From Chrysiogenes arsenatis DSM 11915 (GTDB lineage Bacteria > Chrysiogenota > Chrysiogenetes > Chrysiogenales > Chrysiogenaceae), in the NCBI RefSeq assembly GCF_000469585.1, contig NZ_AWNK01000004.1, forward strand, positions 40,311 to 104,310: DNA of 64,000 bases, in the 5' to 3' direction. Within the stretch, counting starts at the first letter, position 1; every line of letters starts with the position of its first letter. The notes beneath the pieces were generated by a model that saw only the letters and a program-made list of their open reading frames with translations, had not been told where the DNA came from and ran no database searches. The translations under genes and the position numbers were made by a program. Positions 7,527 through 46,900 of this stretch are shown here, piece by piece.

Positions 7527-7542
7527 GGTGTCCCTGCTTCGA

Positions 7543-10359: not shown

Positions 10360-10373
10360 AAGAACACCTCTTA

Positions 10374-23857: not shown

Positions 23858-24491
23858 ATTTTTCCAAATAGCTGGCGATAGCTTTTTTAAGCCAGTCTAA
23901 CGTAATATCGTTGCTGATTAAAAAGAGGTATCCGCTTGCATTAAAGTGTTCGAGGTGAAAAACCGTCTTAAAATAAATCGCATACGAATTCTGCACTTCA
24001 AAAGCAGAATTCAGCGATGTGTGAATTTGATCTTTCACAAAAAAACGGGGTGGCGAATACGTCACAACATCATCCAGCAACTCAGCAATTTTACTGATAC
24101 ATGCCCCGATGACGATATTACTTACTTCAATCAATCCCTCTTTTTCAAGCACATCGACATCAGGATAATCTGCGATAATGGTGTTGCTGCTGTCAAATAA
24201 CCGCAGAAGCTTCTTCCCTTCGCCATGGGGAAAGAGAAGCAGGCTTGAGCCGCTAAACTTACCACTGAAAAACTGCGTAATCATACTCATATCATTGACA
24301 TCGGGTATTTCTTTGCGAATGCAGCGGAATACCTCTGCAAATGGGATGACCTGAATGACAGGCACCGTCAGCGTGACATGCTGATCAATAACATCTGAAA
24401 TTCCGGCAGCCGCTTGCCCAAAAGAGATATTCATAATTTCTTGCAGAACATCCCGCTCTATTTCATTTAAGTAGCTTTTCTCTGCGTCCAT
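23850..24491 (-). CDS. cheC: CheC-family CheY-P phosphatase
   Basis: Two copies of the CheC signature [D/S]-x3-E-x2-N-x22-P. The first is DVLQEIMN followed by 22 residues then P. The second is EVSN followed by 22 residues then P. 213 aa. Confidence 0.75.
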   Translation of the reverse strand: MDAEKSYLNEIERDVLQEIMNISFGQAAAGISDVIDQHVTLTVPVIQVIPFAEVFRCIRKEIPDVNDMSMITQFFSGKFSGSSLLLFPHGEGKKLLRLFDSSNTIIADYPDVDVLEKEGLIEVSNIVIGACISKIAELLDDVVTYSPPRFFVKDQIHTSLNSAFEVQNSYAIYFKTVFHLEHFNASGYLFLISNDITLDWLKKAIASYLEKYA

Positions 24492-29374: not shown

Positions 29375-30661
29375 CTAACGCACAACGGGCAACTCATCCC
29401 ATTTTGTAGTATAACGCGGCGACAGGTTGACCTGTCGCGTATCCCACGTGTGCTCTTTGGGTTTCCCTTGGGCAGCAAACCAGATTGTGCCGCGTCCGCC
29501 ACGGTTAATACGATCAAGGGCTTGCATCAGTTGTTGGCTCTTTTGGATTTCCCCTTCGTCTTCAAAAAGACTCCGCACTTTACGGTGGCGTGGGAGTATT
29601 TCACCCAGCATAACTCCAGCTTTACTATACGCATGCCCTTCGCGCCAAATGCTTTGTAAGAGTGAGCTGGCAGCACTGATAATGTCACGACTATCGTCAG
29701 TGGCCATGCCAAGCGCCATACTTGCACTATTCGCATAATAAGGCTGGCTTTCACTAAAAGGGCTGGTTTGAAGAAAAATGGTAACGTGCTGGGTAAGAAG
29801 TTTTTGCTCGCGCAGTTTCGCTGTCGCATTTCCGGCATAAGTACAGACGGCTTCTTGCATATCAACGTTTGCCGTAATCCGTTTCCCAAAGGAGCGCGAA
29901 CAGATGAGTTGCTTTTGTATCGGAGGGCTTTCTTCGAAGGCAAAACACGGGATACCATTCAGTTCATGGATAGTACGCGACAGGGTTACGGAAAAGCGCC
30001 GCTTGATTTCTTGCGGGTTCGCCTGCGCTAGTTGCAGCGCGGTTTTAATGCCGTAGAGGTGCAGTTTTTCGGTGGTCTTTTTCCCGACACCCCACACATC
30101 TGAAACGGGGGTGATTTCCATCAGCTTTCTTTGACGTATAGAGTCGGTAAGATCGACGACACCATTCGTCGCAGGGTATTTTTTCGCAGCATAGTTGGCG
30201 AGTTTCGCAAGGGTTTTTGTAGGGCCGATCCCAATGCCTACCGTGATACCAATCCACTTGGATACAGTTTGGCGTACACGTTGCCCATATTCGGCAAGTG
30301 GTTCAACGTTGCCGATACCACTGACATCAAGGAACGCTTCATCGATCGAATATATTTCCATCCTCGGTGCAAGGGTTTCGAGAATCGCCATCATCCGTGC
30401 CGACATATCGGCGTAGAGTGGATAGTTGGAGGAAAACGCCACAATCCCATGCCGCTCAATTTCATTTTTGATTTGAAACGCAGGTACCCCCATTTTGATA
30501 CCTAATGCTTTGGCTTCCTTGGAACGAGCCACCACGCAACCATCGTTATTGGAAAAAACGACAACAGGAGTCTCTTTGAGATCAGGTCGAAAGATTTTTT
30601 CGCAACTGGCGTAAAAATTATTACCGTCGATCAAGGCATAGAGGGGCATTGGAGAAATCAT
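29375..30661 (-). CDS. umuC: Error-prone Y-family DNA polymerase V catalytic subunit UmuC
   Basis: ..YALIDGNNFYASCEKIFRPDLKETPVVVFSNNDGCVVARSKEAKALGIKMG.. is co-linear with the UmuC N-terminus. ATGA-coupled to the upstream S24-peptidase gene. Confidence 0.85.
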   Translation of the reverse strand: MISPMPLYALIDGNNFYASCEKIFRPDLKETPVVVFSNNDGCVVARSKEAKALGIKMGVPAFQIKNEIERHGIVAFSSNYPLYADMSARMMAILETLAPRMEIYSIDEAFLDVSGIGNVEPLAEYGQRVRQTVSKWIGITVGIGIGPTKTLAKLANYAAKKYPATNGVVDLTDSIRQRKLMEITPVSDVWGVGKKTTEKLHLYGIKTALQLAQANPQEIKRRFSVTLSRTIHELNGIPCFAFEESPPIQKQLICSRSFGKRITANVDMQEAVCTYAGNATAKLREQKLLTQHVTIFLQTSPFSESQPYYANSASMALGMATDDSRDIISAASSLLQSIWREGHAYSKAGVMLGEILPRHRKVRSLFEDEGEIQKSQQLMQALDRINRGGRGTIWFAAQGKPKEHTWDTRQVNLSPRYTTKWDELPVVR

Positions 30662-31095
30662 AACAGTCGCTTCACCGCATGAATAATAGTGGTGACAACC
30701 CCGAAGATATCAACGTCGGCGCCATCTGGCACCTCAATCGGAGCATAGAACGAATTCATGGGAACCAGTCGCACGGTTGGTCTCATTTCGAGTTTTTTCA
30801 CCGTCAGCTCTCCATGAAACCCGGCAACCACAATATCACCGTGCTGAGCCTCAAGCGAACGATCAACAATCAAAATATCGCCCGGAGCAATACCCGCTTC
30901 TCTCATCGAATCCCCTTCCGCACGGACAAAAAAAGTGGCCGTAGGGTTGCGAATACACAGCTCATTAAGATCAAGCATCTTCTCTATATAATCTTGCGCA
31001 GGGGATGGAAAACCTGCCCGCACCGCTTCTACATACAGCGGAATTTGCAATGGTTTATCAGGGAGTTGGCATGTGCCAAGTATGGCAATACTCAT
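30658..31095 (-). CDS. umuD: UmuD (LexA-like S24 self-cleaving peptidase, Pol V accessory subunit)
   Basis: 145 aa. Ser/Lys dyad context (..AEGDSMREAGI.., ..GDIVVAGFHGELTVKKL..). Sits directly upstream of, and overlapping, umuC. Confidence 0.85.
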   Translation of the reverse strand: MSIAILGTCQLPDKPLQIPLYVEAVRAGFPSPAQDYIEKMLDLNELCIRNPTATFFVRAEGDSMREAGIAPGDILIVDRSLEAQHGDIVVAGFHGELTVKKLEMRPTVRLVPMNSFYAPIEVPDGADVDIFGVVTTIIHAVKRLL

Positions 31096-31122: not shown

Positions 31123-31548
31123 TTACGGCTGTAATTCCCGTACAGTCAGCCGGTTTTCATCAATAGCCATCACTTCGACTTTGGTTCCATCAGGAAATGG
31201 GACAGTACTTTGTGCATCGTATCGCCAAAGCGTTCCACTGTATTCCACGAATTCCCCCTTCACGATACCAATTCCATGTGTGTTGATGGCTTCTATTTCG
31301 GGATGCGGCGTGGTGTCAATAAACCGTTTGCGCAGCAAGAGGAGCAAGACCAGCCCGACGGCTGCCGCAAGGGCACTTTGCAATGCCCAGTGACCAAGCA
31401 GTGCTGGAAAAAGGGCGTGAATAAGTGCCGTTGCCGCAAATCCAGCTCCAAACCACATCATGACAAAAGTGCCAGGAAAAAAAATGAGTTCGATAATGAT
31501 CAACGCGGCGGCAATGCCACCAAGCCAGAGTGGTGCCAGTGGCATCAT
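31123..31548 (-). CDS. NfeD-family membrane protein (short form, C-terminal OB-fold)
   Basis: Three hydrophobic helices then a ~60-aa beta-rich C-terminus. 4-nt overlap with the upstream SPFH gene. Confidence 0.7.
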   Translation of the reverse strand: MMPLAPLWLGGIAAALIIIELIFFPGTFVMMWFGAGFAATALIHALFPALLGHWALQSALAAAVGLVLLLLLRKRFIDTTPHPEIEAINTHGIGIVKGEFVEYSGTLWRYDAQSTVPFPDGTKVEVMAIDENRLTVRELQP

Positions 31549-32456
31549 GGCTGTTTGCCTTTATTGAACAAGTCTGAAAGAAGGCCGATGCCGGATGCCA
31601 TGCTCGACATTTCGGCAGGGACGACCCATTTACTAACAGCATCATTTTTCGCAAGGGTATTCCAAGCGGCAATACGGTCTTTTTCGAGCAGGAACTGGGC
31701 CGCAAGTTGATTATCTTGCATCGCGCTGTTGATCATTTCCATCGCCGCTTTCTGCCCTTCGGCAGTAGCCTTTTGGGCAAAGGCATCAGCTTGCGCAAGA
31801 CGCTCTTGGGCTTCTGCTTTCTTTTGCGCCTGATAGAGATCCGCATCTGACTCTTTTTGCACCTTCACTTTATCCGCTTCGGCACGAGTTTCGATGGCTC
31901 GCTTTTCACGCTCGGCAGTCATTTGCATTTCCATCGCTCTTTTGACCTGATCGGGAACGGAAATTTCGCTCACTTCAACCCGCATGATTTTAGTACCCCA
32001 AGAACTTGAGGCGAGATCAAGCTGCATCATCACTTTGGTATTGATGACGTCGCGACCGGAAAGGATCTGGTCAAGATCCATTTCACCGATGACAGCCCGC
32101 ATATTGGTGATCGCAAGATTTGAAATAGAGCTGTAGAGATCGAGCACTTTATACGTCGCATCAACCGCATTATGGGTAACGATAAAACACACACCATCGA
32201 TAGTGATAGTAACGTTATCGCGCGTAATTACCGACTGCTTGGGAATATTCACCATCGCCTCTTTGGTAGAAATCTTACTTACTACTTTATCAACAAACGG
32301 GATAATAAGACTCAGCCCCGGCGCAAGCGTCCGATGATATTTTCCAAGGCGCTCTACAATCATGTAGTGCGCTTGGGGTACAATGCGAACCGCAAATGAC
32401 GTCACCAAAAAAAGTGCTGCCGCCAGCGTTACCCAAAACGTAAGTGATTCGTACAT
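31545..32456 (-). CDS. SPFH/band-7 (stomatin/prohibitin-like) membrane protein
   Basis: N-terminal TM helix, SPFH domain (..YMIVERLGKYHRTLAPGL.., ..ITRDNVTITIDGV..), and a coiled-coil Ala/Glu/Lys-rich C-terminus. I place the start at the ATG at 32456 (GGAGG RBS) rather than 32528. Confidence 0.8.
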   Translation of the reverse strand: MYESLTFWVTLAAALFLVTSFAVRIVPQAHYMIVERLGKYHRTLAPGLSLIIPFVDKVVSKISTKEAMVNIPKQSVITRDNVTITIDGVCFIVTHNAVDATYKVLDLYSSISNLAITNMRAVIGEMDLDQILSGRDVINTKVMMQLDLASSSWGTKIMRVEVSEISVPDQVKRAMEMQMTAEREKRAIETRAEADKVKVQKESDADLYQAQKKAEAQERLAQADAFAQKATAEGQKAAMEMINSAMQDNQLAAQFLLEKDRIAAWNTLAKNDAVSKWVVPAEMSSMASGIGLLSDLFNKGKQP

Positions 32457-32769
32457 CGCAAAACCTCCAGCAAAGAATAAAAACCATTTTTCAGCATAGT
32501 AACTGACCCATTCCTGACAGAACACCACAACAGACTAGTACGCTCAACAGCAGGAATCAACACTATTCATATTTCAGAAGAGTTGGTGAAGCACCTCCCC
32601 ACACCGAATATAAGACACATGAGAGTAAAGACATTAGGACTTGCGAAGCGGTATAAATCACTTATAGTACCCATGCGAAAAAGATCCACCACGCGGCAAC
32701 AAATCAAGATCCATTTATTTGACGCCTTTGTGCCGCCCAACCGAAACAAACTCAAGGAGTTTCCTAACC

Positions 32770-33540: not shown

Positions 33541-33696
33541 TTCACGCTGAGTTTGCATAGAGACAGTCACAATTGTGTTTAAAATAACGATATGAGACGG
33601 AGAGAGTGCTGGCAGAAATTTTGGACAATAAAACAGGCAGCGCCATAATAAACACTGCCCGTAGATAACCTAAATCGACTTTTTGCACACACCTCA

Positions 33697-34551
33697 TTAT
33701 TCCCGCAGGGATATTTCTTTGTCCCACTCCCAGTAAAACGTGAGGTAAGGTTCGTTTGGGCGCCTCCACCCGAGTGAGATATGGCCAAGCATGGCATCGG
33801 GAAATCTTGAGAGGATCTGGATCACCGATGCGCGGCGAGAAATACTCAAGATCTCAAAGCATTGATCCTGCACGCACGGTAAGATATCCCTAATGGCTAC
33901 GTTTAAATCATACACTCGCAAATCCACCCCTTGGCTCTGTGGCGGAGTGTTGACGTACAGAATGTCCAGTTTTTTTTCGCCATCCACAGTTGCGACACCA
34001 ATCCGATCAAGTAGGCTACCGAAGATCGGTTCAGTAACAACCTCAGGAAGCAGTAAGGGAATCGTGGCTATGGTAGCACCGGGAACCATGTGGTAAGAAG
34101 TCACGCGCTCAAGTTTCCCACTTCGAGCCCGCCATTTGTAGCCACGACACCACAATGCCGATGGTTGCCAATAAAGTTGTTCTCCAACTTGCGTGGACAA
34201 ATGAACGGGAAATTCAAGATAGAGCTTGATGACCTCTGGCGTCGCTGACGACACGTTTTCCGGAGAGACTACCGCCGATTCAATTGCCAGATAACAAAAA
34301 TTTGCACGATCCCAATCGGCAAGAATTGATTCAGATACTATGTTCGGAACACCGCCAATCTCCTGAAAATGGGAAAACAATTCCATAGGGTCGAGATTCT
34401 GTTTATCAAACCCAAAAAGCAATCTACTGCCATCAAAGCCATTTGGTGTAATTTGCAGCGAACGTTCCCACCCTACCACTCTTGAACCCAACCAATGAGC
34501 GATTTGATAATAAACATCAAGAGTCAGAAGCTTATTGGAGTGGTTACTCAT
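33697..34551 (-). CDS. Hypothetical protein, last gene of the export operon (no recognisable domain)
   Basis: 284-aa ORF overlapping the SecA-like gene by 8 nt. No TM helix or signal peptide is obvious and no motifs are recognised. Confidence 0.5.
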   Translation of the reverse strand: MSNHSNKLLTLDVYYQIAHWLGSRVVGWERSLQITPNGFDGSRLLFGFDKQNLDPMELFSHFQEIGGVPNIVSESILADWDRANFCYLAIESAVVSPENVSSATPEVIKLYLEFPVHLSTQVGEQLYWQPSALWCRGYKWRARSGKLERVTSYHMVPGATIATIPLLLPEVVTEPIFGSLLDRIGVATVDGEKKLDILYVNTPPQSQGVDLRVYDLNVAIRDILPCVQDQCFEILSISRRASVIQILSRFPDAMLGHISLGWRRPNEPYLTFYWEWDKEISLRE

Positions 34552-36502
34552 AACTGGTAAATGTCATCCTTTTTTGACTTTCGCGTGTTGCCGTGTTCAT
34601 AAATCGACGTAAGCGAAAGGCTTTTAACTCAGCTCGGTGCTGTGTAAGTCGAATCATTGTTGTCCATAATTTATTATGGGGCCAGTGTTCTGCCAAAGAA
34701 CACAGAACGCGCAAAACGCATTTTGGCAACACGGCTCGCATAATCCCATCCTCAAGCGAAACCAGTGGGTACGCTTCGCCCGGATTTCCCTGCCGCCCAG
34801 CGCGACCGAAAAGTTGCCAGTCAATGCGAGCCGACTCATGCGGCTCCATCATGATGACGCGTAACCCTCCTGCTGCCATTACTTCCCTCGAAAGCTTAAT
34901 GTCCGTTCCCCTTCCCGCCATGTTCGTCGCTATCGTGAGTTGCCCTTTCTCGCCTGCACGGGCAACAATATCGGCCTCTTCGGTGAGCTTTTTGGCGTTC
35001 AAGAGCTGATATTTTACCCTCTCCCGATCAAGCCGACCGGCAAGTTGTTCGCTATCTTCAATGGTACGTGTTCCTACCAGCACAGGAATCTCCCGCACAA
35101 GCAATTCCCGCAAAAGATTCAATAAACCAAGCTCTTTTTCCTGTTTCGTTACAAACAGCTGAAAAGGCTGCACGATCAGTTGCGATGGAAGTCGTGAAGG
35201 AATTCGGAGTGTGCGTATCCGATAGTTAAAAAACAGCTCATGAGCAATATTCTGCAGTGTGCCACTCGCACCCGTCAGGCGCACATAATGTTTAAAATAA
35301 TTCTGAAAACTCATCCGCGCTAACGTTTTATTCGGGTGAGTGAGTGGTACACCAGCGCGAGCCTCTACTGCTTGATGCAGGCCGTAGCTCCACGATCTAC
35401 CCGGCATAGGACGGCCAGTGCCTTCATCAACAATCACCACCTCGTCGTCAAGCACTACATAATGCTGATCCTGAAGAAAGTAATCACGCGCTAGCACAGC
35501 CTGCGTAAATAAATCATGGCGTCTATGTCGGCCTCGCCAAATAGGGGGAAGCTCTTGAGCCATCTTTTCCATTAACTGTTCACCATGTGTCGTCCAACGC
35601 ACATCTCGGTGCAGCGAACTACACTGATAATCTCGGGGCGACTGTAATCTATCGACCAGCGTGCGTGCGACAAGAATAGCTTCGTGTAGTACTGGATTAT
35701 GATCTGCTCCAGAAATAATCATCGGAGTAATGGCTTCATCAATCAAAATATTATCGGCTTCATCGACAATTGCGGTATGAATGCCGCGCATCAGTAATCG
35801 ATGTGCGGTTTGCCCTTGAAGCATACGCACACTCATGGTCAGAGGCGTCACGGAGCCGCCGAAAGTGATTTGATCGGTCAGATAGTCGGCTAAGAGCTGC
35901 TTGGCCGTTGAATACACAACATCGGCAAGATACTGCGTTGGCTTCTCTTCCTGAGTATGGGTTTGCAGCACCGTAGCAACGGAAACACTGCAAAATTCGT
36001 AGAGCGGTGCCAACTCAGTAGCGTCACGCTCGGCTAAGTAGTCATTGGCAGTAATGACGTGACAAGGTCGGTTGCTCCACCCGAAAAGAATAGCGAGTAA
36101 GCCAATCGTAAGAGTTTTCCCCTCCCCTGGTGCTAGCTGTACCAAATATCCATCAAACATGGCGAGAATGGCTGCCATTTGCACTTGATATGGTTCCATG
36201 CCCAGCAGTCGCACCGATGCAAGTTGAAGGAGAGCAAGTGTTTTATGCAATAACAACCGTTCTGCAGAGAGTTGACCGGCAAGCGCGTGCAAGCGCATTG
36301 CATTCAGCTGATGGATCAATGCTTCTGGAGTCAAATCAGCGAGAGCGCGATAGTGCCGACCAATACCATCTGCTTCTTGCAGATAGTCACTCACTAGTTT
36401 TTTTTCTCGCCAGCGATGCCGCACCAGATGCCATTTTACGATGCACCAATACGGCTCTTTCGGGAGTTTTTTTAACGATGGAAGTTGCAACGATGCGAGC
36501 AT
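34544..36502 (-). CDS. Truncated SecA-family ATPase (SecA DEAD motor, ~650 aa, lacks the C-terminal scaffold/wing/tail)
   Basis: Co-linear SecA motor motifs: ..LAPGEGKTLT.. (Walker A), ..HVITANDYLAERDA.., ..VDEADNILIDEAITPMIISG.., ..LTGASGTL.., ..VLVGTRTIEDSEQLAGRL.., ..LLNAKKLTEEADIVARAGEKGQLTIATNMAGRGTDIKL... The protein ends ~80 aa after the last motif. Confidence 0.8.
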   Translation of the reverse strand: MLASLQLPSLKKLPKEPYWCIVKWHLVRHRWREKKLVSDYLQEADGIGRHYRALADLTPEALIHQLNAMRLHALAGQLSAERLLLHKTLALLQLASVRLLGMEPYQVQMAAILAMFDGYLVQLAPGEGKTLTIGLLAILFGWSNRPCHVITANDYLAERDATELAPLYEFCSVSVATVLQTHTQEEKPTQYLADVVYSTAKQLLADYLTDQITFGGSVTPLTMSVRMLQGQTAHRLLMRGIHTAIVDEADNILIDEAITPMIISGADHNPVLHEAILVARTLVDRLQSPRDYQCSSLHRDVRWTTHGEQLMEKMAQELPPIWRGRHRRHDLFTQAVLARDYFLQDQHYVVLDDEVVIVDEGTGRPMPGRSWSYGLHQAVEARAGVPLTHPNKTLARMSFQNYFKHYVRLTGASGTLQNIAHELFFNYRIRTLRIPSRLPSQLIVQPFQLFVTKQEKELGLLNLLRELLVREIPVLVGTRTIEDSEQLAGRLDRERVKYQLLNAKKLTEEADIVARAGEKGQLTIATNMAGRGTDIKLSREVMAAGGLRVIMMEPHESARIDWQLFGRAGRQGNPGEAYPLVSLEDGIMRAVLPKCVLRVLCSLAEHWPHNKLWTTMIRLTQHRAELKAFRLRRFMNTATRESQKRMTFTSYE

Positions 36503-36504
36503 GC

Positions 36505-38652
36505 TTACTGGATCTGATAGCGTGATTGTAATAGCTGCCGCACTGCCAGAGCTATTTGCTCCAGAAGCGGTCTGGGCGACAATGCAATACGCATGACACC
36601 AGGAGCACCATCATAGAAAGCCGTTGGTGATTCTGAAAAACGCGCAATCACCTCAAAAAACGGCTCATCAGTTCGTAATCTCCCTTGAGCATCAGCTTGA
36701 GCAAAGAGCGTACCACCTCCTTGAAGTGCGAGTGCCGAAGAAGGGAGCTCGTGCTTCTGATACGGAATAAACTGCAGATCATGACTCTCCAGTGGCGAAG
36801 TAAACTGCCCAGGCAGACGGATTTCGGCACGTAGCAAGTTCGATCCGAAAAGATCTCCTGCCTGCTCTTGGGTAACAACACCGACAAACTGCTGCTTGCC
36901 CGGAGTAATCATTACCCCTAAACGCTCTCCACGCATAAAATGCGAATTGACCCGCGCCGGCATCACATCACTTACCCAGATCCCATCAGTCGGTGCCACC
37001 GTCTTGAGTCGATCAAGTCGTTTGTCAAGTTCATCCAGACGCCCCACCAGAAACGACTCGCGGTCATAGAGCGCTTTTAAATCACCCTGCTTACCATCCG
37101 TTGCTTTGCGGATAAGCCAACGAGTTTCCACCAATTGTTGCCCTGTCAGTTCATACTCCAGTTCTAATTCTGGATTGATAAACTCCATCAACACACTGCC
37201 TTGCTGCACGGTATCGCCAGAACGAACGACCAGCGCTGTCAAGGTTCCACCGGCTTCCGCATACAACGGCATCCGCTGCTCAGACAAAAGCACCCCCGGC
37301 GCAACAAGGGCATACGGCAGAGGAAATGTTGCCAATACCAGCAGAATGAGCAGCGGGGTAACGGCAGAAACAACGATGGCACGACGGCGATTCTGCCGTA
37401 ATTCGCTGCTTTTACGAAGATATTGCACGAGTTTCAACGTGGGGCCAATGAGCCACATGTAGCACATTGCGAGTAACATTAAAACACCGAGAAACAGTGA
37501 AAGGTCGGCCATATAAAGCAAAATCGCCACCATAACGAACAGGCGGTAACCAAAACTTGCGGCACCATACCCATAATACCAGTAACGTTCGTTACGGTTT
37601 TCCGCCGGCTCCTGCGCATCTTTGGTGCCAAGAAGTACTACGTTCGCAATATAATGCCACTGACGCCCCGCTTTCTGATAGAGATTCGGCAAATCAATCA
37701 GATCGGAGAGGACATAATAGGCATCAAATTTCAGCAACGGATTTCCATTAAAAACAAAACTCGAAATAGAACCAATAATCATGATGTTAAAAGCAAGACC
37801 ATTGACAAACCCGGGTGCTGTCAACCCCCAAACAATCGCCGCCAACGCCGCAAAAAACAACTCAACATACAGACCAGAGACTCCGACAAATGCGCGGTGC
37901 CACTTACTGCGCATTGACCATGACGAGCTCACATCAATGTAAGGAAGCGGAGCCAGCGCGATAAACATCACCCCAAGCGTATAGACATCACCACCAGAAC
38001 GGCGACATGCTATTGCATGCCCCATTTCATGAAGAAATTTCAAGAGAAACATGGCGACATAAAGCCACAAAAGGTTATCGACGGCTAAAATCCCTTGTGC
38101 CTGACTCGTAAACGATCCGAAATGGTCAATCACCGACTTCGCACCAAACAAAACCACAAGCAACCAACCAACAAAAGACCATCGCGAAAAAAAACGTTGC
38201 AGCCATCCGATATTGTTCTTCAGAAATTCATTCGGATTCCAAAGTGGAATTCTAAAATAGAGAAATGCCAGCAGGTGAGAAAGCTTTTCCTTGCGCCGCT
38301 GCTCCGCGTAGCGCTCGAAAATTGATTCGCTCTTGCCCTGTGAGCGGAAGAACAGAAGGCTCATCTGATGCAGTTGGGATAATAACATAATGACGGCATC
38401 TTGACTCGGTGCATCTTCGGGATACTCTTCCGTAAATGCTATCCAAAGCTCTTCAACCGTTCTTTCCGGAGTAAGGCGCGCAAGGAACAGATACGCCGGT
38501 TCCTGAACGCGGTAGTACTTCTCAGAACAACTATCTTGCAGCACATACCAGACCTGATCGCGATAGATCTGTTTATGAATGCGGATCGTCGGCAGTAAAC
38601 CAAGCCGCAGTGTCGCAACCTGATACCAAGATTCGCTGAATGTCGCAGACAA
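36505..38652 (-). CDS. Fusion of a site-2-protease-like M50 intramembrane metalloprotease and an HlyD-type periplasmic adaptor (MFP)
   Basis: ~170-aa cytoplasmic N-domain. Polytopic region with HExxH (..LHEMGHAIAC..) and a downstream NPLLKFD (third zinc ligand). A later TM helix and a ~300-aa C-terminal region with biotinyl/lipoyl-like and beta-barrel MFP character (..GTLTALVVRSGDTVQQGSVLMEF..). Confidence 0.75.
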   Translation of the reverse strand: MSATFSESWYQVATLRLGLLPTIRIHKQIYRDQVWYVLQDSCSEKYYRVQEPAYLFLARLTPERTVEELWIAFTEEYPEDAPSQDAVIMLLSQLHQMSLLFFRSQGKSESIFERYAEQRRKEKLSHLLAFLYFRIPLWNPNEFLKNNIGWLQRFFSRWSFVGWLLVVLFGAKSVIDHFGSFTSQAQGILAVDNLLWLYVAMFLLKFLHEMGHAIACRRSGGDVYTLGVMFIALAPLPYIDVSSSWSMRSKWHRAFVGVSGLYVELFFAALAAIVWGLTAPGFVNGLAFNIMIIGSISSFVFNGNPLLKFDAYYVLSDLIDLPNLYQKAGRQWHYIANVVLLGTKDAQEPAENRNERYWYYGYGAASFGYRLFVMVAILLYMADLSLFLGVLMLLAMCYMWLIGPTLKLVQYLRKSSELRQNRRRAIVVSAVTPLLILLVLATFPLPYALVAPGVLLSEQRMPLYAEAGGTLTALVVRSGDTVQQGSVLMEFINPELELEYELTGQQLVETRWLIRKATDGKQGDLKALYDRESFLVGRLDELDKRLDRLKTVAPTDGIWVSDVMPARVNSHFMRGERLGVMITPGKQQFVGVVTQEQAGDLFGSNLLRAEIRLPGQFTSPLESHDLQFIPYQKHELPSSALALQGGGTLFAQADAQGRLRTDEPFFEVIARFSESPTAFYDGAPGVMRIALSPRPLLEQIALAVRQLLQSRYQIQ

Positions 38653-38655
38653 TTC

Positions 38656-40536
38656 CTACCTCCAGAGCGCAAGACGGATACGATTCAGCGTCTTGTGTGT
38701 ATAGATCCAGAAGTACGACCGTGGTTGCACATGAATTTTTGCCACCCCAGTCATACCAGGGCGCCACCACGTTTCACCATCCTCTTCAAGTTGAGCAATC
38801 ACGGTAAACCGCGCCCCCTCCTGCGACTTCACCTCAGCCATTGGAATTACGCGACTGATTCGCAGGGGAATTTTCCGCCCTGGCTGGCTGACCAGCGCAA
38901 ATTCGCCAATACTCCCCTCGCGCACATGGTGAATGTCGTCATGCGCTACTTCAACTACCACATATACATCTTCGGTTTGTGCAATACGCAGCAGGGGTTG
39001 CCCTTTGGAAACAGGTGCTGAAATCAGCTCGCGCCGCTCCCCTTCGACCACTACCCCAGTAAAGGGAGCGTGCATATGTGCTTGCGAAAGCTGATAATTC
39101 ACCCGCTCCATACGGGCTTTCACCTGCTCAATCCGTGCCAAAGCAATCGCCAAGTCCACACTGGTAAACTCTGCCCGAGCCCGATCAGCTTCGGTTACGT
39201 TTCGCTGTAACTCCGCTTGGAGTTCGGCAAGTTGCATCAGCAAATCTTGCACATCAAGCGTCAGCAACGGATCACCTTCCACCACCTCGTCACCACTGGT
39301 GACATAGGCATCGATGATCACCCCCTCAAAAGGGGCCGTAATGAGCCGAGTATTGTCCGTAACAAACTGCCCAGTCCCTTCAACAGTATGCATGGTGGAG
39401 AATGTCAGCGAGCCAAACAACAGTAAAGATCCAGCCAGTACCAACGACTTAACCAGCAGATTTTCTGCCCCCGCAAGACGGCCAATTGTGCGCAGAGCAA
39501 CCGTCCGCAACCGATCGCGCCATTCGGCATCTTGCAAATACAATTGTTCCAGCCGCGGCATCACGGTTCGTGCCAGAAAGTGCACCGCCTCGCAAGGAAG
39601 TTCCGGCAAATCATCACGGTAGTTGACGAGTGTCAATGCGAACACGGTATGGCCGTGAGAGTTCACAAGCGGAAAAGTCATAATAGATCGTGCCGCAAGG
39701 TGGGTTTGTAGTTGTTGATGAGCAAGGGTAATTACCTTTCCATCCGAAGCACGGTGACTTGAATAATGAATGGCGGCAACCTGATCCACCGACTCCTCTA
39801 AAGCCGCTTCAAACAGTCTAACGGTATCGGTTTTTTGCTCAAAGCGCTCATAGTGGCTGATCCCCTTTACCCGTGTATACGCCCCCTCTTTCCAGCCCAG
39901 CACGACCTGATCAAAGGCGCTCTGGTAATTAACGATGCCATTGGCTAACGCATACACAGCCGCTTGAAAGTTTTCGGATTGATATATTTCGCTCAGCAAG
40001 TCGAGCAAGCTTGCGAGCATGTTTTCGTGCGCCGTTTTCCGCGCATCAACTGCTTTTGACTCTGTACCTAACAACGCTGACGTGTTCAAGACGGACTCAT
40101 CCTGCACAAAGTCGAGCATTAACTGGGCACGCACAAGAATGTCGTTCAAACGTGTTGCAGCATCACAATCAATCGCTAAAATCAAAAAATATGGGGTAGG
40201 ACACAACGCACGGAGCGCGACGAAGCCGATTGACCCATCGATATGGGGATGGGGTGGACGGTGGGCAAATCCACTGGCTTCGGCCCGCTGCAGAAAAAGG
40301 AAAAATTCCTGCGTGTCTAACAAAGGCTTTGACGGGCTTTTCTGTTCTAAATCGCTGGTAGCAACCAAAAGCAGTTGATGTTCCTGTACCAAAATGAGTT
40401 CCGCACTCGGCACACGGCATACGTTCTTGACGAGCACCAGATAATCTATCCACGATGCTTGACCTGCTTGAGACTGAGTGACCCGTACGTGGTATAATTC
40501 CTGTAATCGTTGGCGAAATGCTTCTTTAGAGGCCAT
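38656..40536 (-). CDS. HlyD-type periplasmic adaptor with a large (~370 aa) N-terminal cytoplasmic sensory-like domain (GAF-like; uncertain)
   Basis: Single TM helix (..LLVKSLVLAGSLLLFGSLTF..) followed by a coiled-coil and MFP lipoyl/beta-barrel segments (..APFEGVIIDAYVTSGDEVVEGDPLLTLD.., ..APFTGVVVEGE..). The N-terminal 370 aa are soluble and alpha/beta-like. Confidence 0.7.
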   Translation of the reverse strand: MASKEAFRQRLQELYHVRVTQSQAGQASWIDYLVLVKNVCRVPSAELILVQEHQLLLVATSDLEQKSPSKPLLDTQEFFLFLQRAEASGFAHRPPHPHIDGSIGFVALRALCPTPYFLILAIDCDAATRLNDILVRAQLMLDFVQDESVLNTSALLGTESKAVDARKTAHENMLASLLDLLSEIYQSENFQAAVYALANGIVNYQSAFDQVVLGWKEGAYTRVKGISHYERFEQKTDTVRLFEAALEESVDQVAAIHYSSHRASDGKVITLAHQQLQTHLAARSIMTFPLVNSHGHTVFALTLVNYRDDLPELPCEAVHFLARTVMPRLEQLYLQDAEWRDRLRTVALRTIGRLAGAENLLVKSLVLAGSLLLFGSLTFSTMHTVEGTGQFVTDNTRLITAPFEGVIIDAYVTSGDEVVEGDPLLTLDVQDLLMQLAELQAELQRNVTEADRARAEFTSVDLAIALARIEQVKARMERVNYQLSQAHMHAPFTGVVVEGERRELISAPVSKGQPLLRIAQTEDVYVVVEVAHDDIHHVREGSIGEFALVSQPGRKIPLRISRVIPMAEVKSQEGARFTVIAQLEEDGETWWRPGMTGVAKIHVQPRSYFWIYTHKTLNRIRLALWR

Positions 40537-40548
40537 AAAACCACACCA

Positions 40549-41433
40549 TCACAGCTGCACTCGCGCTTTTAATCCTGGCCGAAACCGATTATCCACGTTG
40601 CGATATTCAACCTTCACTTCGACTAATCCACTTGCCGGATCAGCTACTGGTGAGAGAAAAGAAATCGCCCCTTGTGCGCGCGTGGATTCCACTGCAAAAT
40701 CAACTTTTTGCCCTATCGTAAGCTTCGCTGCGATAGCACTCGGAATACTGATGCGGATGTAAATATACGAAGTATCAACCAGTTCGATGATCGGCTCACC
40801 CGCCTGAGCCCATTCCCCTTTTTTGAGGCGAATTTGGGTGATAAATCCTTTACTGGGCGCGAGTAGAGTCCGTTGGGCAAGGACTTGTCGGCCAATTTTA
40901 TAATCGTAGTCTTGTTTTTTTTCTTCTAACTCAAGCAGTGCAACTTCGCTCTCTGTTGTGACTCTATTGATGATCATTTGATTGAGCTCATCAAGACTGA
41001 TTGATCTACTTTCATGGTACAACTCAAGAGCGGATTTTACTTGCTCCACTTGCAGCAGTAACCGAGCGCGAGCCCCGTCCAATGCACTCTTGTCCCGCAT
41101 CAGCGTTTCAAGGCGCGACAGTTCAAGTTGCTCAATATGTTGCTCCAGCACCAAGAGCGGTGTTCCCTGATCGACGTAGGCTCCTTCTGCGATCTTGACT
41201 TCACTGACCACACCGCTAACCGCCATTGCGAGCAAGTAGCGCTCACGAGGGTACACCACACCTACCATCGCATCACTTATTGCAACCGTCTCATGTGGAC
41301 TCACCTCTGGACTAAATGAACGGAAATCGCCACGCGAACGAGTGCTTGGAGCCTCGCTCGCTATAGCGAATACATTCAAGGACAAAAACAGCAGGAAAAA
41401 AATACAGTTGGTCAATCGCATAGTGCCCTTCAA
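40549..41433 (-). CDS. HlyD/RND-type periplasmic adaptor subunit (membrane fusion protein), secreted or lipid-anchored
   Basis: N-terminal signal/anchor (..CIFFLLFLSLNVFAIA..), lipoyl motif (..ISDAMVGVVYPRERYLL.., ..APSKGFITQIRLKKGEWAQAGEPIIEL..), and an alpha-hairpin. Confidence 0.8.
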   Translation of the reverse strand: MKGTMRLTNCIFFLLFLSLNVFAIASEAPSTRSRGDFRSFSPEVSPHETVAISDAMVGVVYPRERYLLAMAVSGVVSEVKIAEGAYVDQGTPLLVLEQHIEQLELSRLETLMRDKSALDGARARLLLQVEQVKSALELYHESRSISLDELNQMIINRVTTESEVALLELEEKKQDYDYKIGRQVLAQRTLLAPSKGFITQIRLKKGEWAQAGEPIIELVDTSYIYIRISIPSAIAAKLTIGQKVDFAVESTRAQGAISFLSPVADPASGLVEVKVEYRNVDNRFRPGLKARVQL

Positions 41434-41437
41434 AATT

Positions 41438-43060
41438 CTACAGTGCTTCTACGTCAAACTGAATGCCGAGTTCCTGCAACAGGCTACCATCCGAAAGCTG
41501 AAGACTGATTTTTGCCAGTTCATATTGAATCTCGGCATCCACCATACGGATTATACCCACGTTGAGATTATCTTCGCGCTCAATCATATCAATGTAGCGC
41601 GCTACACCGCGGTCAAACCGTTCCCGCTCAATTTCAAGCAGTTCCTTGAGGACAGTGGTATTCTGCCGATGACGATCCAACTCTTGATACGCTTGATCTA
41701 CCTGTGCAAGCCGCAACTGAAGTTGATTTGAAAGGTCTACCTTTACCGCTTCAGCCTGATATTGATTTTGGGTAATTCGTGAAAGCGCTATGGATTCTTT
41801 CGAACGCGCACTTTGATTACCACCTAAAGGGATGGAAAACTCAACACCAGCATACCAGTTGGGATAACGCTCCGAAAATGCTTCTTCAAAAGTTCTGCCG
41901 TAGCGCTCATCATACCGAAGGCTACTTTGGCCATAGCCCGCAACAAAATCGAGTTTTGGACGCAACTCATCGCGGGCTATCGCCAGAGAATGTTCTTCCA
42001 GCGCAATACGTTCTATTGCAATTCCGTAATTCGGCCAAACACTGAGAACCTGCTCAAAGTAAGTCTGAAAACTTTCCGGCTGTTGCCACGCGGTAGTGTC
42101 AGGCTCTGAAGTCGTCTGAAAAACAACGTGCTGATATTCATTGGCTGAGAGGTTGAGAACCCCCTTAATCGCACTTTTCACTTGTTCATACCCGCGCTCT
42201 ACGACAAATGATTCTGCCTGACGAAGTAGAAGGGTAGAACGGGCTTCGGTCATAGCAGTTTGCGGTAAGCGCCCAGCTTGCACGCGCCGCTCAATATCGG
42301 TGAGGATATTATTCGCATTTTTCAATGAATCTGCATTCAAAGCTTTCATCTGTTCGGCACGGTACAGCCGCCAGTAGAGGCTGAGCGCATCGTATGACTT
42401 ACTCAGAATCTGTTGCTGAGTTTCCTGTTTGCGGATTTCAATCTGTTTTTCTGATTGTGCGATCCGATTCTCAATTTGAGCCGCCCCAAATCCGCGCAAA
42501 ATTGGTTGACGGATACGGAAATTCAGCGAACCGACATTGTCGTTAATCCCAGTAGGATCATTCACCGAGCTCGTATTATTATAGCGTTTATGCCCTTCAT
42601 ATTCGACAGAGACCTCAGCCCCAGAAACGACTAACGTGCGCACGCCAAACTGAAAACGACCATTGCGGTCTATCGTCGTGTCATTAGGGGCTAACGGATT
42701 ATTTTCGGTTTTTCGCTCATCAGCACGGAGTATTGAAAAAAATTCCATCTCGTATGCGGCGCGATCATGCTGTAGTTGCGCCTCAGCAATTTTTTTCTGC
42801 TCTGCACTTACGAGCACCTCAGGATTGCGTAGGAGCACAAGGTGCACGAAAGACTCTTTATTTAGAGCCACAGCACCTTGTTGTATTTGCGTCAGCACTT
42901 GTTCGTGGCGATTCATGTCACCATGAGAAGGTTGACTCTCGGCCCACGCGGGAATGGCCAGACACGCTGCCGAAACCGCTAAACCTGCAAAAACTTTTTG
43001 GGGGCAAGAAAGTATATTCCGTATCATCGTCAACCTCTTTGTATCGGCATAGATGGCCAT
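41438..43060 (-). CDS. TolC-like outer-membrane efflux factor
   Basis: Signal peptide. 540 aa with the two-fold repeated helical/beta structure and coiled-coil-rich Q/L/E/R repeats typical of outer-membrane factors. 4 nt upstream of the MFP gene. Confidence 0.85.
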   Translation of the reverse strand: MAIYADTKRLTMIRNILSCPQKVFAGLAVSAACLAIPAWAESQPSHGDMNRHEQVLTQIQQGAVALNKESFVHLVLLRNPEVLVSAEQKKIAEAQLQHDRAAYEMEFFSILRADERKTENNPLAPNDTTIDRNGRFQFGVRTLVVSGAEVSVEYEGHKRYNNTSSVNDPTGINDNVGSLNFRIRQPILRGFGAAQIENRIAQSEKQIEIRKQETQQQILSKSYDALSLYWRLYRAEQMKALNADSLKNANNILTDIERRVQAGRLPQTAMTEARSTLLLRQAESFVVERGYEQVKSAIKGVLNLSANEYQHVVFQTTSEPDTTAWQQPESFQTYFEQVLSVWPNYGIAIERIALEEHSLAIARDELRPKLDFVAGYGQSSLRYDERYGRTFEEAFSERYPNWYAGVEFSIPLGGNQSARSKESIALSRITQNQYQAEAVKVDLSNQLQLRLAQVDQAYQELDRHRQNTTVLKELLEIERERFDRGVARYIDMIEREDNLNVGIIRMVDAEIQYELAKISLQLSDGSLLQELGIQFDVEAL

Positions 43061-43128: not shown

Positions 43129-43875
43129 TTATGACTCAGCGATTACAGGCTCTGTTTCACCTGGCTTCAGGCTCGTCTGCCCATCTTTTAGCATCGCCAA
43201 GCGTTCAAGTTGGCTGAGTGAGGTTAAATGAGCAAAGATAGGCGCAAAGTAGCGCTTTTCGCGTATTTCAAGAAAGCGCTTATCGGAAAGATTATTCAAA
43301 CGCTCCTCATTGATCACATAACAACCAGTTACGTTGCGAATCTGCCCACCGTAGCGCACACGCATACTGAGCGGAGTAAAGAGATTATTTTCAGCCATGA
43401 ACGTACAGAATGCCTTCGTGAAGATCTCCATTTGTTGCATTTCGCCAAGGTATTTTTTTACATTGTCGATGATCACGGTTGGCTCACCTTTTTCAAACAA
43501 CGCTTGGCCATCTTTTGTCCCAACACAGTCCGCATCTTCATCAATGCAAACTGTAAATTGATCAGCTTGATCACTTTTAGCGAGGGCAAAAGGGTAACGG
43601 CGGATAATGGCTGGCACATATGAAGCCTTCCAACTCCCATCTTCAGCGATAAATAGATTTTCTCCGGCATCAAGGCCAAACATCACAACAGGCTTAAATT
43701 CATCCTGCTCTTTGTCTTCAAGGAAAACAATCGGATACACCGATGCCGCCCGAGCAAATTCATGCACCATGAGTGACGCAATATGAAACTTACTGGCAAA
43801 GGCAAAGCTGCTAATAGGTGTCACTTTTGTCTTCGCATGTTTGTCCTTGTTAAGCGGAACCAATTTTTTAAACAT
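43129..43875 (-). CDS. SapC-family protein
   Basis: 248 aa, co-linear with SapC-family (PF07277-type) proteins (..FARAASVYPIVF.., ..AIIRRYPFAL..). GGAGG RBS. 26 nt downstream of the giant gene. Confidence 0.7.
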   Translation of the reverse strand: MFKKLVPLNKDKHAKTKVTPISSFAFASKFHIASLMVHEFARAASVYPIVFLEDKEQDEFKPVVMFGLDAGENLFIAEDGSWKASYVPAIIRRYPFALAKSDQADQFTVCIDEDADCVGTKDGQALFEKGEPTVIIDNVKKYLGEMQQMEIFTKAFCTFMAENNLFTPLSMRVRYGGQIRNVTGCYVINEERLNNLSDKRFLEIREKRYFAPIFAHLTSLSQLERLAMLKDGQTSLKPGETEPVIAES

Positions 43876-43901: not shown

Positions 43902-46900
43902 TTAAAACTCAAATTCTTCCTCTGTGTAGAAGTCGAAAATGAAACTATCTTGAATACTTGAGCCAAAGCTCGAAAACTGGAAGTCTCCATAGAAGTTAAC
44001 CACCTTGCTGGAAGTATACGGCATTTGCAGGTTGAAACCTGGCTCTAAGCCTACTGGCGCTTGCTGCATAAATCCAAAGTCGAAGTTGATGCCACCAAAC
44101 ATTCCGTCAGAGATGCCAAGATCGCTCAAGTTCATAAAGGAACTCATGGTGGCTTTCTGTAAACGTGACAAGCTTGCATGATCAAGGAATGTTGTCGCAT
44201 TGTGCAAACGCAGAGCATCCATATTTTCTATCGATAATTCTTGGATTGTTTTACTTGCACTAGCCGAAGCGCCTCCCCCTTGAGATCCACTGAAGCGCAC
44301 TGACTCAAAAGCACTCAATTTGAATTCCGCTCTCACTGGACCATGAACAACGGCGTGATTACCCACAGAAATCACGTACACTCGCTGATCAATACCACGG
44401 ATACCAAATATATAGCTATCACCAGTAGCATCATCAACAACACTATACAGTTGCCCAGGACCGACAATGCCATGAATCTGCGCTGCATCTATCTTCAGTA
44501 AGTCAGCGCGGATAGCTTCAAGTTGAGGTATCAGGCTTGCTACTGGCTGATCAATAAAAAACGGTATCGTCTTGATAAACACCTGATTGGCAACAATATT
44601 GGCTGCTTGTGTCCCGAGCGAACTCTGGATACGATATTCCGAACTTTCAAGCCACACATCACCACCCGTCGCAACGTGAGCAATCAACAAAATACTATCG
44701 GTCGAGGTAAAGTAAATATCGCCTCGCTCTGATAATGTCTGTGCACTTGCTTTCATCTCTATGACCGGAGCCGTGTAACGAACTTCCCCCTGCCCCGTCA
44801 GCGACAGAGTGGCCTCTTGCACAATACTTTTTCCAGATGAAAGGACAACGGTACTATCGACGCCTGAGATATTCATAGCAAGAATCAGTGAACCATGTAC
44901 GGCATGGAGTTCGATAGTGCCATGACTACTCGTTCCATTCAGCATTGAATCCGTAATTTCTTCAACAAGAGCTTCATTGGTCATCCGCAGCACCGTTAGC
45001 TCACCGAACTGGTCATTATCACCAATGCGCAAATCTTCTTGGGCGGCAAGGAAGATACCACCATGACCAATATCCGCACTCAGTGAATCGACTTCAACCA
45101 CAAAAGGACGCCCTGATTCACCAAGTTGACTACCAGTAACCCGCAGATACTTTGCTAGGATATTCACGGTACTTGAAGGAGCACTGGTTATGACGCCACC
45201 AACCAGACTGACCGCAGTTGGAGTTGTTACATGAGAGATGGACATACTGTGAGTTGCTTCGATGCGAATATTGTTCTGAGTTTGCAATAGAGCTTTAGCT
45301 GTCATGGAGACTGATTGGGCACTAATGTCGAGCGTCGCATCTCCTGTAATATGAACCAGACTGTCGATAAACTCCACATTGCCGTTCCGCGCTAACAACG
45401 ACACATTACCACTGCTGGCAATGTCGCTCTGCACGATAATGGATCCATTTTCAACTTCTATTTGTAAGTGCTCGCCAGAGAAATTCAACGCACCATCAAG
45501 TATAAAGTTTCGCTGCTCACCGGAAACGCCTGCCTGCACCATTATGACAGTTACGGTGTCGGTTGCCAATTCAAGCTCAGACAAACGCAGATCACCACTA
45601 GTGGTAATGGTATTTAACCCCGCTATGGTGAATACCCCCTGCAGGGTAGTAGTCCCGCCACTGTGAGCACTTAGATCGCCACCAACCGTGAGGTTTCCTT
45701 CAATTGTCAAAGTTTCATCGGTTTTGATAGTCGTGTCACCGGTGATAGTGATTGCATCGCTGAGTATTACTGCTCCGGTTCCGGTGATAGCAAGGTCGCC
45801 GCCAATCTCTAGTGTGCCTTCGACGGTAGTTGCTCCGCCGACTGTCAGGGTAACATTGGCGCTGGTGAAAGTTCCTTCTATCAGCAGGGCATCGGTTGAT
45901 GTTAGTTCAGTACTTCCTTCAACGATAAAGATTCCGTCTAGGATGCTCTCGCCTGCACTGCTTGTGGTAAGGGCGCCACCAACAGTGAAGTTTCCTTCAA
46001 GTGTCAGGTCAGCATCGGTCTCGATAGTCGCGTCACCAATAATAGTGATTGTATCGTTGAGCATCACCGCTCCGGTTCCGGTGATAGCAAGGTCGCCGCC
46101 AATATCTAGTGTGCCTTCGACGGTAGTTGCTCCGCCGACTGTCAGGGTAATGTTGGCGCTGGTGAAAGTTCCTTCTATCAGCAGGGCACCGGTTGATGTT
46201 AGTTCAGTACTTCCTTCAACGATAAAGGTTCCATCTAGGATGCTCTTGCCAACACTGCTTGTGATGAGGGCGCCACCAACAGTGAAGTTTCCTTCAATCG
46301 TCAGGTCGGCATCGGTCTCGATAGTCGCGTCACCGCTAATGGTGATTGCATCGCTGAGCATCACCGCTCCAGTTCCGGTGATAGCAAGGTCGCCGCCAAT
46401 ATCGAGCGTACCTTCGACTGTAGTTGCTCCACCGACTGTCAGGGTGACGTTGGCACCGCTGAAGGTTCCGGTAATCGATAAGTCTGCTTTCGCATCGATA
46501 GTCGTGTCACCGCTAATGGTGATTGCATCGCTGAGTATTACTGCTCCGGTTCCAATGATAGCAAGGCTGCCTGCAACATCCAGCTCACCTTCGATAGTGG
46601 TTGTTCCGCCGATTGTCAGGGTGACATTGGCGCTGGTGAAAGTTCCTTCTATCAGCAGGGCACCGGTTGATGTTAGTTCAGTACTTCCGTCAACGATAAA
46701 GGTTCCATCTAGGATGCTCTTGCCAACACTGCTTGTGATGAGGGCGCCACCAACAGTGAAGTTTCCTTCAAGTGTCAGGTCGGCATCAGTCTCGATAGTC
46801 GCGTCACCGCTAATGGTGATTGCATCGCTGAGCATCACCGCTCCGGTTCCGGTGATAGCAAGGTCGCCGCCAATATCTAGTGTGCCTTCGACGGTAGTTG

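Follow-up and report, generated by a model that had tools for sequence, protein, structure and literature searches.

A short SecA paralogue encoded with membrane fusion proteins, a TolC-type factor and a giant repeat protein in Chrysiogenes arsenatis

The short SecA and its operon

A stretch of 64,000 nucleotides from the genome of Chrysiogenes arsenatis DSM 11915 (contig NZ_AWNK01000004.1, positions 40,311 to 104,310; hereafter the window) contains an operon in which a stand-alone, shortened paralogue of SecA is encoded together with a TolC-type outer membrane factor (OMF), several proteins of the membrane fusion protein (MFP) type and a giant repeat protein. All genes of the operon share the minus strand, from the giant gene through an open reading frame (ORF) of 284 amino acids (aa), and the initial annotation had singled out the short SecA as a motor possibly recruited to an export machine other than Sec. 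The features are given below in window coordinates, the short SecA first and the other parts in order of increasing distance upstream, followed by the downstream end of the operon.

34544-36502, minus strand: short SecA paralogue, 652 aa, ATG start, intact ORF (ORF list)
36505-38652, minus strand: PqqD-like/M50/MFP fusion, 715 aa (Pfam, AlphaFold2, Foldseek); 2 nt to the short secA
38656-40536, minus strand: GAF-transmembrane-MFP-type protein, 626 aa (Pfam HlyD_D23, HlyD_3); 3 nt to the next gene
40549-41433, minus strand: small periplasmic MFP, 294 aa (Pfam HlyD_3, HlyD_D23); 12 nt to the next gene
41438-43060, minus strand: TolC-type OMF, 540 aa (Pfam OEP, E 6.3e-27, in two stretches); 4 nt to the next gene
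43129-43875, minus strand: SapC-family protein, 248 aa, accessory (Pfam SapC, E 3.3e-69); 68 nt to the OMF gene
43902-63995, minus strand: giant repeat protein, >6,697 aa, putative cargo (ORF list); 26 nt to the SapC gene
43905-43949, minus strand: acidic-aromatic C-terminal tail of the giant protein, ...DSFIFDFYTEEEFEF-COOH, candidate secretion/recognition tag
33697-34551, minus strand: 284-aa ORF, last gene of the operon, overlapping the stop of the short secA by 8 nt (ATGAGTAA)
33633-33662, minus strand: terminator-like hairpin of 12 bp with 6 G-C pairs and a T-run, the longest stem in the scan

The frame at 34544-36502 reads as first annotated, with 652 codons on the minus strand beginning with ATG, and all of the SecA motifs quoted at that time are found in the protein in the order given for them: GEGKTL lies at residues 126-131, HVITANDYLAERDA at 148-161, VDEAD at 246-250, IDEAITPMIISG at 254-265, TGASGTL at 410-416 and TNMAGRGTDIKL at 526-537. 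Motif VI, GRAGRQG, follows at 566-572. The protein has an identical counterpart in the databases, an entry from C. arsenatis. The C terminus had been placed about 80 residues past the last motif, which is right when counted from GRAGRQG and wrong when counted from TNMAGRGTDIKL, from which the distance is 115 residues. Pfam recognises SecA_DEAD (E 4.5e-71), SecA_PP_bind, the preprotein cross-linking domain or PPXD (E 6.5e-23), and P-loop_SecA (E 2.3e-44); neither this protein nor a single one of 66 family members matches SecA_SW or SEC-C. The protein consists of a basic N-terminal helix, a first nucleotide-binding domain (NBD1) with an insertion of about 17 residues, the PPXD, NBD2, a long helix (610-647) and a terminal [LM][ST]F motif. 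In a phmmer alignment its residues 51-600 match residues 33-558 of the 841-residue Bacillus subtilis SecA, to which it is 33-35% identical (Foldseek E 5.6e-49). The AlphaFold2 (AF2) model, built with 66 relatives, is of high confidence (predicted local distance difference test, pLDDT, 89.9; predicted template-modelling score, pTM, 0.86) and has only two helices past NBD2 (594-606 and 610-647); judged from this model, the long helix is the start of the scaffold helix, and nothing more of the scaffold is kept. Alignment, AF2 and Pfam thus agree with the truncation originally proposed, the helical wing domain, the two-helix finger and the zinc tail all being gone.

The same data settle what kind of protein was truncated. 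Foldseek searches with the model returned SecA structures at E ~1e-49 and DEAD-box helicases at E ~1e-10 with TM-scores of at most 0.41, and the best TM-scores belong to SecY-bound, closed-clamp SecA (6itc 0.79, 5eul 0.78, 3dl8 0.77). Together with the presence of the PPXD, this gap between SecA and helicases upholds the assignment to SecA rather than to a generic helicase. Scores for the NCBIfam models of housekeeping SecA are well under the cut-offs (450 bits against 814 for NF009538; 433.5 against 800 for TIGR00963), and the matches span only model positions ~9-555 of ~800. The four NCBIfam SecA2 models also score below cut-off without exception (376.6/930, 344.4/725, 395/1085 and 314.8/1100), in keeping with the proposed distinction from SecA2.

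A homology search found more than 100 short SecA relatives of about 640-700 aa that share 43-60% identity and come from Oceanospirillales, Marinomonas, Marinobacter, Thiomicrospira, Vreelandella, Desulfosarcina, Azohydromonas, Leptothrix and many metagenomes; the family as a whole ranges over Gamma- and Betaproteobacteria, Desulfobacterota, Campylobacterota, Verrucomicrobiota, Planctomycetota and Chrysiogenes. In the alignment of 66 sequences the Walker A residues G126-T130, D247/E248/D250, R531/G532/D534, R567/R570 and F648 are invariant. A full-length conserved family of 640-700 aa with invariant ATPase motifs bears out the view that the gene is not a frameshifted secA, and no other secA was found within the 64-kb window.

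Two further traits mark the family. The NBD1 insertion, seen relative to B. subtilis SecA at about residues 212-235 (window about 35800-35870, minus strand), is conserved throughout, with the consensus GGxxxRLxxxLxxLxG. The family terminus, [LM][ST]F after the long helix, reads MTFTSYE in the window copy (34544-34560) and QLSFTD, ALSFTG or FLGFAG elsewhere. Because F648 is invariant among the 66 sequences and pLDDT is low at this point, the terminal segment may be a docking motif.

Conserved neighbours and the giant protein

The gene context was surveyed with the M50 fusion as bait and a single genome for each species; its relatives are encoded in at least 594 stretches, and 82 loci were compared, 80 of them taken from the bait search and two obtained earlier. 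In all 72 loci with enough downstream sequence, the M50 fusion is immediately followed by the short secA, and in 70 of 74 the gene for the GAF-MFP protein is the fusion's immediate upstream neighbour. The remaining parts are more variable: the small MFP occurs in 52/82 loci, the OMF in 48/82 and SapC in 30/82 (47-70% identity). A match to the nucleotide-binding domain of an ATP-binding cassette (ABC) transporter was found in only three of the 82, each time more than 2.5 kb from the cluster and never inside it. The window's operon likewise has no ABC exporter, the 64-kb window holding only an unrelated ABC-2 pair 32 kb away, and no secY2 or asp genes. The upstream neighbour had been annotated as an M50/MFP fusion separated from the short secA by 2 nt, and both the fusion and the junction (TAA-GC-ATG) are confirmed; the question whether the two genes are conserved neighbours is answered by their pairing in 72/72 informative loci. 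This coupling, within operons that have no ABC exporter, supports the proposal that a SecA motor was recruited to a non-Sec machine.

The fusion is itself a composite protein. It comprises a cytoplasmic PqqD/RRE-like domain (~17-102), a multi-helix M50 membrane domain (~109-442) and, on the periplasmic side, an MFP domain that includes an alpha-hairpin (444-712); its AF2 model has a pLDDT of 84.4, and the N-terminal domain folds into three strands and three helices. PqqD is a peptide-binding fold of the RiPP-recognition-element (RRE) type, RiPPs being ribosomally synthesised and post-translationally modified peptides. Searched in isolation, the N terminus matches Pfam PqqD at E 2.6e-4, and 21 of 53 relatives also have a PqqD match. 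The Pfam M50 score of the window copy (24.7) is below the gathering score of 27.2, and all 53 relatives match M50 at E <= 0.01. Both M50 motifs are present, HExxH at 208-212 and NxNPLLxFD at 302-310, and H208, E209, H212, N302, N304, P305 and D310 are invariant in 53 fusion sequences. Because the zinc ligands and catalytic residues (H208, E209, H212, D310) never vary, the protease is probably active. The MFP domain resembles MacA, MexA and AcrA in Foldseek searches (E ~1e-12 to 1e-11). The best NCBIfam matches of the fusion are RiPP metalloproteases (daptide, 153.8 bits, cut-off 300; YydH/LiaK, 23.7, cut-off 225), and databases name its family 'putative peptide zinc metalloprotease'.

The 626-aa protein encoded upstream of the fusion has about 358 cytoplasmic residues, a single transmembrane segment (359-382, transmembrane scan) and a periplasmic HlyD/MFP domain. 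Its homologues at seven of ten diverse loci contain a GAF domain (about residues 190-330), and it is the orthologue of the GAF-HlyD protein described by Kamneva et al. (see below). The 294-aa MFP just passes the NCBIfam RND_mfp cut-off (95.4 bits against 94.9) and has a signal-peptide-like hydrophobic segment at residues 5-29.

At the head of the operon, the giant ORF runs off the window: the codon upstream of its first ATG is TTC, so that the N terminus lies beyond the window. Pfam detects DUF5649, which is catalogued as a fibrillar-adhesin stalk repeat, in 14 stretches. The protein has 675 acidic and 245 basic residues, is essentially free of cysteine and contains no repeats-in-toxin (RTX) repeats (0 GG.G.D motifs in the window giant); a composition of this kind is characteristic of substrates of type I secretion systems (T1SS), which leave the cell unfolded in one step. 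Nested DNA tandem repeats inside the gene (45677-48578; periods 177, 297 and 474 nt; 63-89% matches) mirror the protein repeats, and a plus-strand ORF of 1,037 codons within the gene (45688-48801) is most likely an antisense artefact of them.

The order headed by the giant and SapC genes is also found in Desulfosarcina ovata, where the giant measures 9,627 aa, and in L083, the closest metagenomic relative; at about 20 further loci an ORF on the same strand, at least 1,000-2,300 aa long, is cut by the end of the 10-kb flank. Pfam and NCBIfam searches with the giant's tail and with giant fragments from five other loci found nothing beyond the DUF5649 of the window copy. What these proteins do have in common is an acidic-aromatic C-terminal tail, present at the end of giant ORFs from at least 16 loci of different classes. 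The window copy ends in ...FDFYTEEEFEF, and other loci in ...FEYWTEDVVL (L009), ...YEYWSDDDELSI (L010 and L012), ...FDYWVENLTL (L015), ...FEYWIENMMF (L024), ...FDYWVESLTL (L028) and ...VDWWLESVEL (L037), giving the rough consensus [FY]-[DE]-[FY]-[WFY]-x-[DE]-[DE]-x-x-[LF]-COOH. Compared with the body of the proteins, the last 15 residues of 16 tails are rich in D+E (29% against 11%) and F+W+Y (22% against 6%) and poor in K+R (1% against 6%), and the motif occurs in none of about 150 other long ORFs of the loci. A second tail type, ...L[LV]RSTGQ[LV][LV]..S.W...., ends giant ORFs in Comamonadaceae (L033, L052, L053, L054 and L059), and since this type too is conserved, at least two classes of tag are suggested.

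Seven proteins, mostly fragments, were recovered when the last 250 residues of the giant were used in an exhaustive HMMER search, and the six strongest matches (E <= 1e-10) stop at the final residue of the target. Two of these proteins were looked up: that of L085 is followed by SapC and by OEP, MFP, MFP and M50 genes, and that of L084 by a fragment of SapC where the contig breaks off. SapC directly follows a tail-bearing protein in L001, L083, L084 (as a fragment) and L085. A word-indexed search with the last 300 aa returned no match, the query itself included, very long proteins being apparently missing from that collection or capped in it. No Sec-type signal peptide was found in the one complete tail-bearing protein, of 1,287 aa. 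From these observations the giant neighbour is the likely cargo of the short-SecA system.

The operon closes with the 284-aa ORF, for which Pfam (at a lax threshold as well) and NCBIfam gave no match. A homologue occupies the same position in L083 (37% identity, E 7e-27), and tblastn against the 82 other loci found no match; it looks like a lineage-specific accessory gene. The terminator-like hairpin lies 35 nt past the stop of this ORF, ahead of a convergent SDR gene, and ends the operon. Farther away, the window is dense in signalling genes, which encode GGDEF, GGDEF-EAL and response-regulator-GGDEF proteins, a CheA-like kinase, CheC/CheX and methyl-accepting chemotaxis proteins (5397-12278 and 21210-24491, minus strand). 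Cyclic-di-GMP controls giant adhesins in LapA-type systems. A UmuD-like (Peptidase_S24)/UmuC-like (IMS) pair (29375-31095, minus strand) and an NfeD/SPFH (Band 7) pair (31123-32528, minus strand), between the operon neighbourhood and pnp, are ordinary housekeeping or stress genes.

A proposed exporter without an ABC transporter, and its alternatives

We consider it reasonably probable that the short SecA is the dedicated ATPase of a T1SS-like, envelope-spanning exporter that lacks an ABC transporter; the probable task of this ATPase is to power the export of the adjacent giant surface protein. Starting from the computed anatomy, conservation and gene linkage, we infer the following steps. The exporter would consist of the TolC-type OMF, the small MFP, the GAF-transmembrane-MFP protein, the PqqD-like/M50/MFP fusion and the short SecA. 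In known tripartite pumps, MFP hexamers assemble around the OMF; here the M50 fusion and the GAF-MFP protein would ring the OMF trimer with their MFP domains, perhaps in a mixed hexamer, and the small MFP would be an additional periplasmic part. The membrane helices of the two inner-membrane proteins, chiefly those of the M50 domain, would form the inner-membrane conduit, and the short SecA would dock on the cytoplasmic domains of the fusion and the GAF-MFP protein and not on SecY; candidate docking sites on its side are the basic helix at the N terminus, the helix at the C terminus and the invariant terminal motif. The PPXD/NBD2 clamp would grip the unfolded giant and, by ATP-driven steps, feed it through with no periplasmic intermediate. 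The acidic-aromatic tail would serve as the recognition tag, with the PqqD-like domain and SapC as candidate readers, the M50 active site might clip the tail or clear stalled substrate, and the GAF domain, which suggests control by a ligand, would gate activity.

Several points weigh against this exporter. According to the AF2 model, the short SecA is missing the two-helix finger that canonical SecA inserts into the channel, and M50/S2P proteins are not, to our knowledge, known as protein-conducting pores. Giant ORFs adjoin only about 20-25 of 83 loci, and there is none within 10 kb at most loci of Planctomycetota and Verrucomicrobiota; for this reason the cargo at those loci may be different or encoded elsewhere. 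When within-type and between-type identities were compared domain by domain among loci of the two tail types, the ratios (PqqD-like domain 0.68, PPXD 0.60, SapC 0.89) singled out no domain as the tail reader, the lowest scores going to fast-evolving domains. The cytoplasmic part of the window's 626-aa protein has no significant GAF match in Pfam even at a lax threshold; we regard the GAF-type region of this copy as too divergent to score. Finally, our literature searches found no experimental study of any member, and the sole expression data, from M. extorquens, indicate little or no expression (Kamneva et al. 2015, PMC4452313).

Among the alternatives, all of which we hold to be unlikely to differing degrees, the first makes the short SecA a holdase, unfoldase or targeting factor that hands the unfolded giant to the membrane complex, transport being driven by another energy source such as the proton-motive force or extracellular folding. 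We give this a low probability. Extracellular folding acts as a ratchet for T1SS adhesins and RTX proteins, which counts in its favour, and the missing two-helix finger is precisely the force-transmitting element. Chaperone-like activity of SecA is moreover known (see PMC2248683). These points are opposed by the strict invariance of the ATPase motifs and by a conserved core that contains no other energising component. The holdase overlaps with the dedicated motor proposed above, and sequence alone cannot separate the two.

It is similarly improbable that the short SecA is a SecA2-like accessory motor, working on SecYEG either alone or with the housekeeping SecA to bring the giant protein, or else components of the system itself, across the inner membrane, so that the MFP/OMF parts would carry out a second step from the periplasm. 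NBD1, PPXD and NBD2 are kept at about 33-35% identity to SecA, the predicted fold is nearest to the SecY-bound, closed-clamp structures (6itc, 5eul, 3dl8), and the tree of Kamneva et al. sets the clade beside actinobacterial SecA2 (PMC4452313). However, the scaffold/wing and the two-helix finger, which provide SecY contact and entry, are missing, every SecA2 model scores below its cut-off, and the operon is devoid of secY2 and asp genes; the strict adjacency to the M50-MFP fusion (72/72 loci) and the one complete tail-bearing protein without a signal peptide are also difficult to reconcile with a Sec-dependent first step.

A RiPP-like system, in which a leader bound by the PqqD-like domain is cut off by M50 and a small peptide leaves through the MFP/OMF parts, the giant being a mere neighbour, appears quite unlikely. 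The idea draws on the fusion, whose best NCBIfam matches are the daptide and YydH/LiaK intramembrane metalloproteases, whose N-terminal domain is PqqD/RRE-like in Pfam and whose family carries the database name cited above. Those scores are nevertheless far under the cut-offs (153.8 against 300; 23.7 against 225), and the operon holds no modification enzymes, small precursor ORFs not having been specifically searched for. A small peptide, furthermore, needs no PPXD-bearing SecA motor, and giant tail-bearing proteins and SapC recur beside the system, the tail search itself leading back to the operon.

The last reading, a decayed housekeeping secA or a generic DEAD-box helicase misread as SecA, for which a length 150-250 residues short of canonical SecA and weak Pfam DEAD and Helicase_C matches (E 1.5e-4) could be cited, is extremely improbable and effectively refuted by the intact ORF, whose catalytic motifs are invariant, over 100 equally long relatives in many phyla, the conserved neighbourhood, the SecA-specific PPXD, the SecA-best structural matches (Foldseek ~1e-49 against ~1e-10 for helicases) and the finding of such proteins as second copies beside canonical SecA (Kamneva et al., PMC4452313).

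If the proposed exporter is real, the role of SecA extends beyond the Sec translocon, and a pared-down form of it drives a TolC-dependent exporter in the place of an ABC transporter; a distinct secretion route would then exist across many Gram-negative-type phyla and would explain the exit of some of the largest bacterial proteins. More tentatively, we propose as a possibility that this is a widespread, unrecognised pathway in which a SecA-derived motor, an active S2P-type protease-MFP and a GAF-MFP replace the ABC transporter for one-step, TolC-dependent export of giant fibrillar proteins, that a C-terminal tag is read by the PqqD-like domain or SapC and possibly cleaved, and that the record-size proteins of Chlorochromatium may be served by the same route. 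Thanks to the conserved cargo tail the system can be put to a direct test, and the tail might be used as an export tag; the protease-MFP fusion, predicted to be catalytically intact, poses a new mechanistic question. The value of the present analysis lies in a sharper, testable model for a family known since 2015 and not in its first discovery.

Comparison with known systems

[quoted passage not shown] Both the family and the recruitment idea were thus already published, and the interpretation in the initial annotation is a rediscovery. The window locus has these parts of the module: SecA_DEAD and PPXD without SecA_SW, an M50-HlyD protein, an extra HlyD MFP, OEP and no ABC transporter; the 626-aa protein fits the GAF-HlyD component in its HlyD part, position and size, its own GAF match not being significant. 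Cargo, giant proteins, SapC and Chrysiogenes or Chrysiogenota are not mentioned in that study (PMC4452313), and our literature searches retrieved no later experimental follow-up, the only related descriptions being the 2015 paper and a preprint on Omnitrophota. New here are the link to a cargo and its tail, SapC, the PqqD-like domain, the invariant protease residues, the 284-aa gene and the Chrysiogenes member.

With canonical SecA of the SecYEG system the short SecA shares the NBD1-PPXD-NBD2 motor and all ATPase motifs; it differs in having no wing domain, two-helix finger/IRA1, C-terminal linker or zinc finger, and in being encoded in an MFP/OMF operon. In the engineered E. coli truncation SecA-N68 the ATPase is de-repressed because IRA1 is missing. 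It is this truncation that the short SecA resembles in Foldseek searches (PDB 5k9t). The SecA2 systems of mycobacteria, Listeria and Clostridioides and the streptococcal SecA2/SecY2 also employ a second, specialised SecA paralogue for a restricted cargo, but SecA2 keeps the scaffold/wing and acts with SecYEG or SecY2. The short SecA comes from Gram-negative-type phyla and has neither SecY2 nor Asp neighbours.

A SecA_DEAD/PPXD module without scaffold/wing has been reported inside giant proteins of Omnitrophota and Actinobacteriota, where it was proposed to help export the giant itself (West-Roberts et al., bioRxiv 10.1101/2023.11.21.568195). In those giants the module is fused in cis, membrane-anchored and near type II secretion-like genes, whereas the protein described here is free-standing, of 652 aa, and belongs to a TolC/MFP operon. 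The M50 metalloproteases of RiPP systems (daptide, YydH/LiaK) and PqqD-type RREs share the HExxH M50 core and the PqqD-like N terminus with the 715-aa fusion, which is set apart by its C-terminal MFP, by its coupling to a SecA-like ATPase and by an operon without RiPP modification enzymes. In the Chlorochromatium epibiont, a horizontally acquired 'secA', Cag_1676, is co-expressed with giant genes and sapC (bioRxiv 10.64898/2026.03.19.712371), and one Chlorobi species figures among the carriers of a secondary SecA in the study of Kamneva et al. (PMC4452313). Cag_1676 may represent the same system.

A further comparison is with the classical T1SS, namely HlyBD-TolC, LapBCE for giant adhesins and the SapCDEF system of Campylobacter fetus, with which the locus shares an OMF, MFPs and an acidic, cysteine-poor, repeat-rich giant neighbour. 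As in the window operon, the sap locus of C. fetus has a SapC-family gene beside transporter genes. Cargo information at the C terminus and the lack of an evident N-terminal signal would be further common traits, the former resting here on a putative role of the tail and the latter on one complete relative; the conservation of this tail goes far beyond that of the signals of classical T1SS. The differences are the absence of RTX repeats, the presence of three distinct MFP-type proteins and the absence of the defining ABC transporter, in whose place the short SecA, the M50-MFP fusion and the GAF-MFP protein apparently stand.

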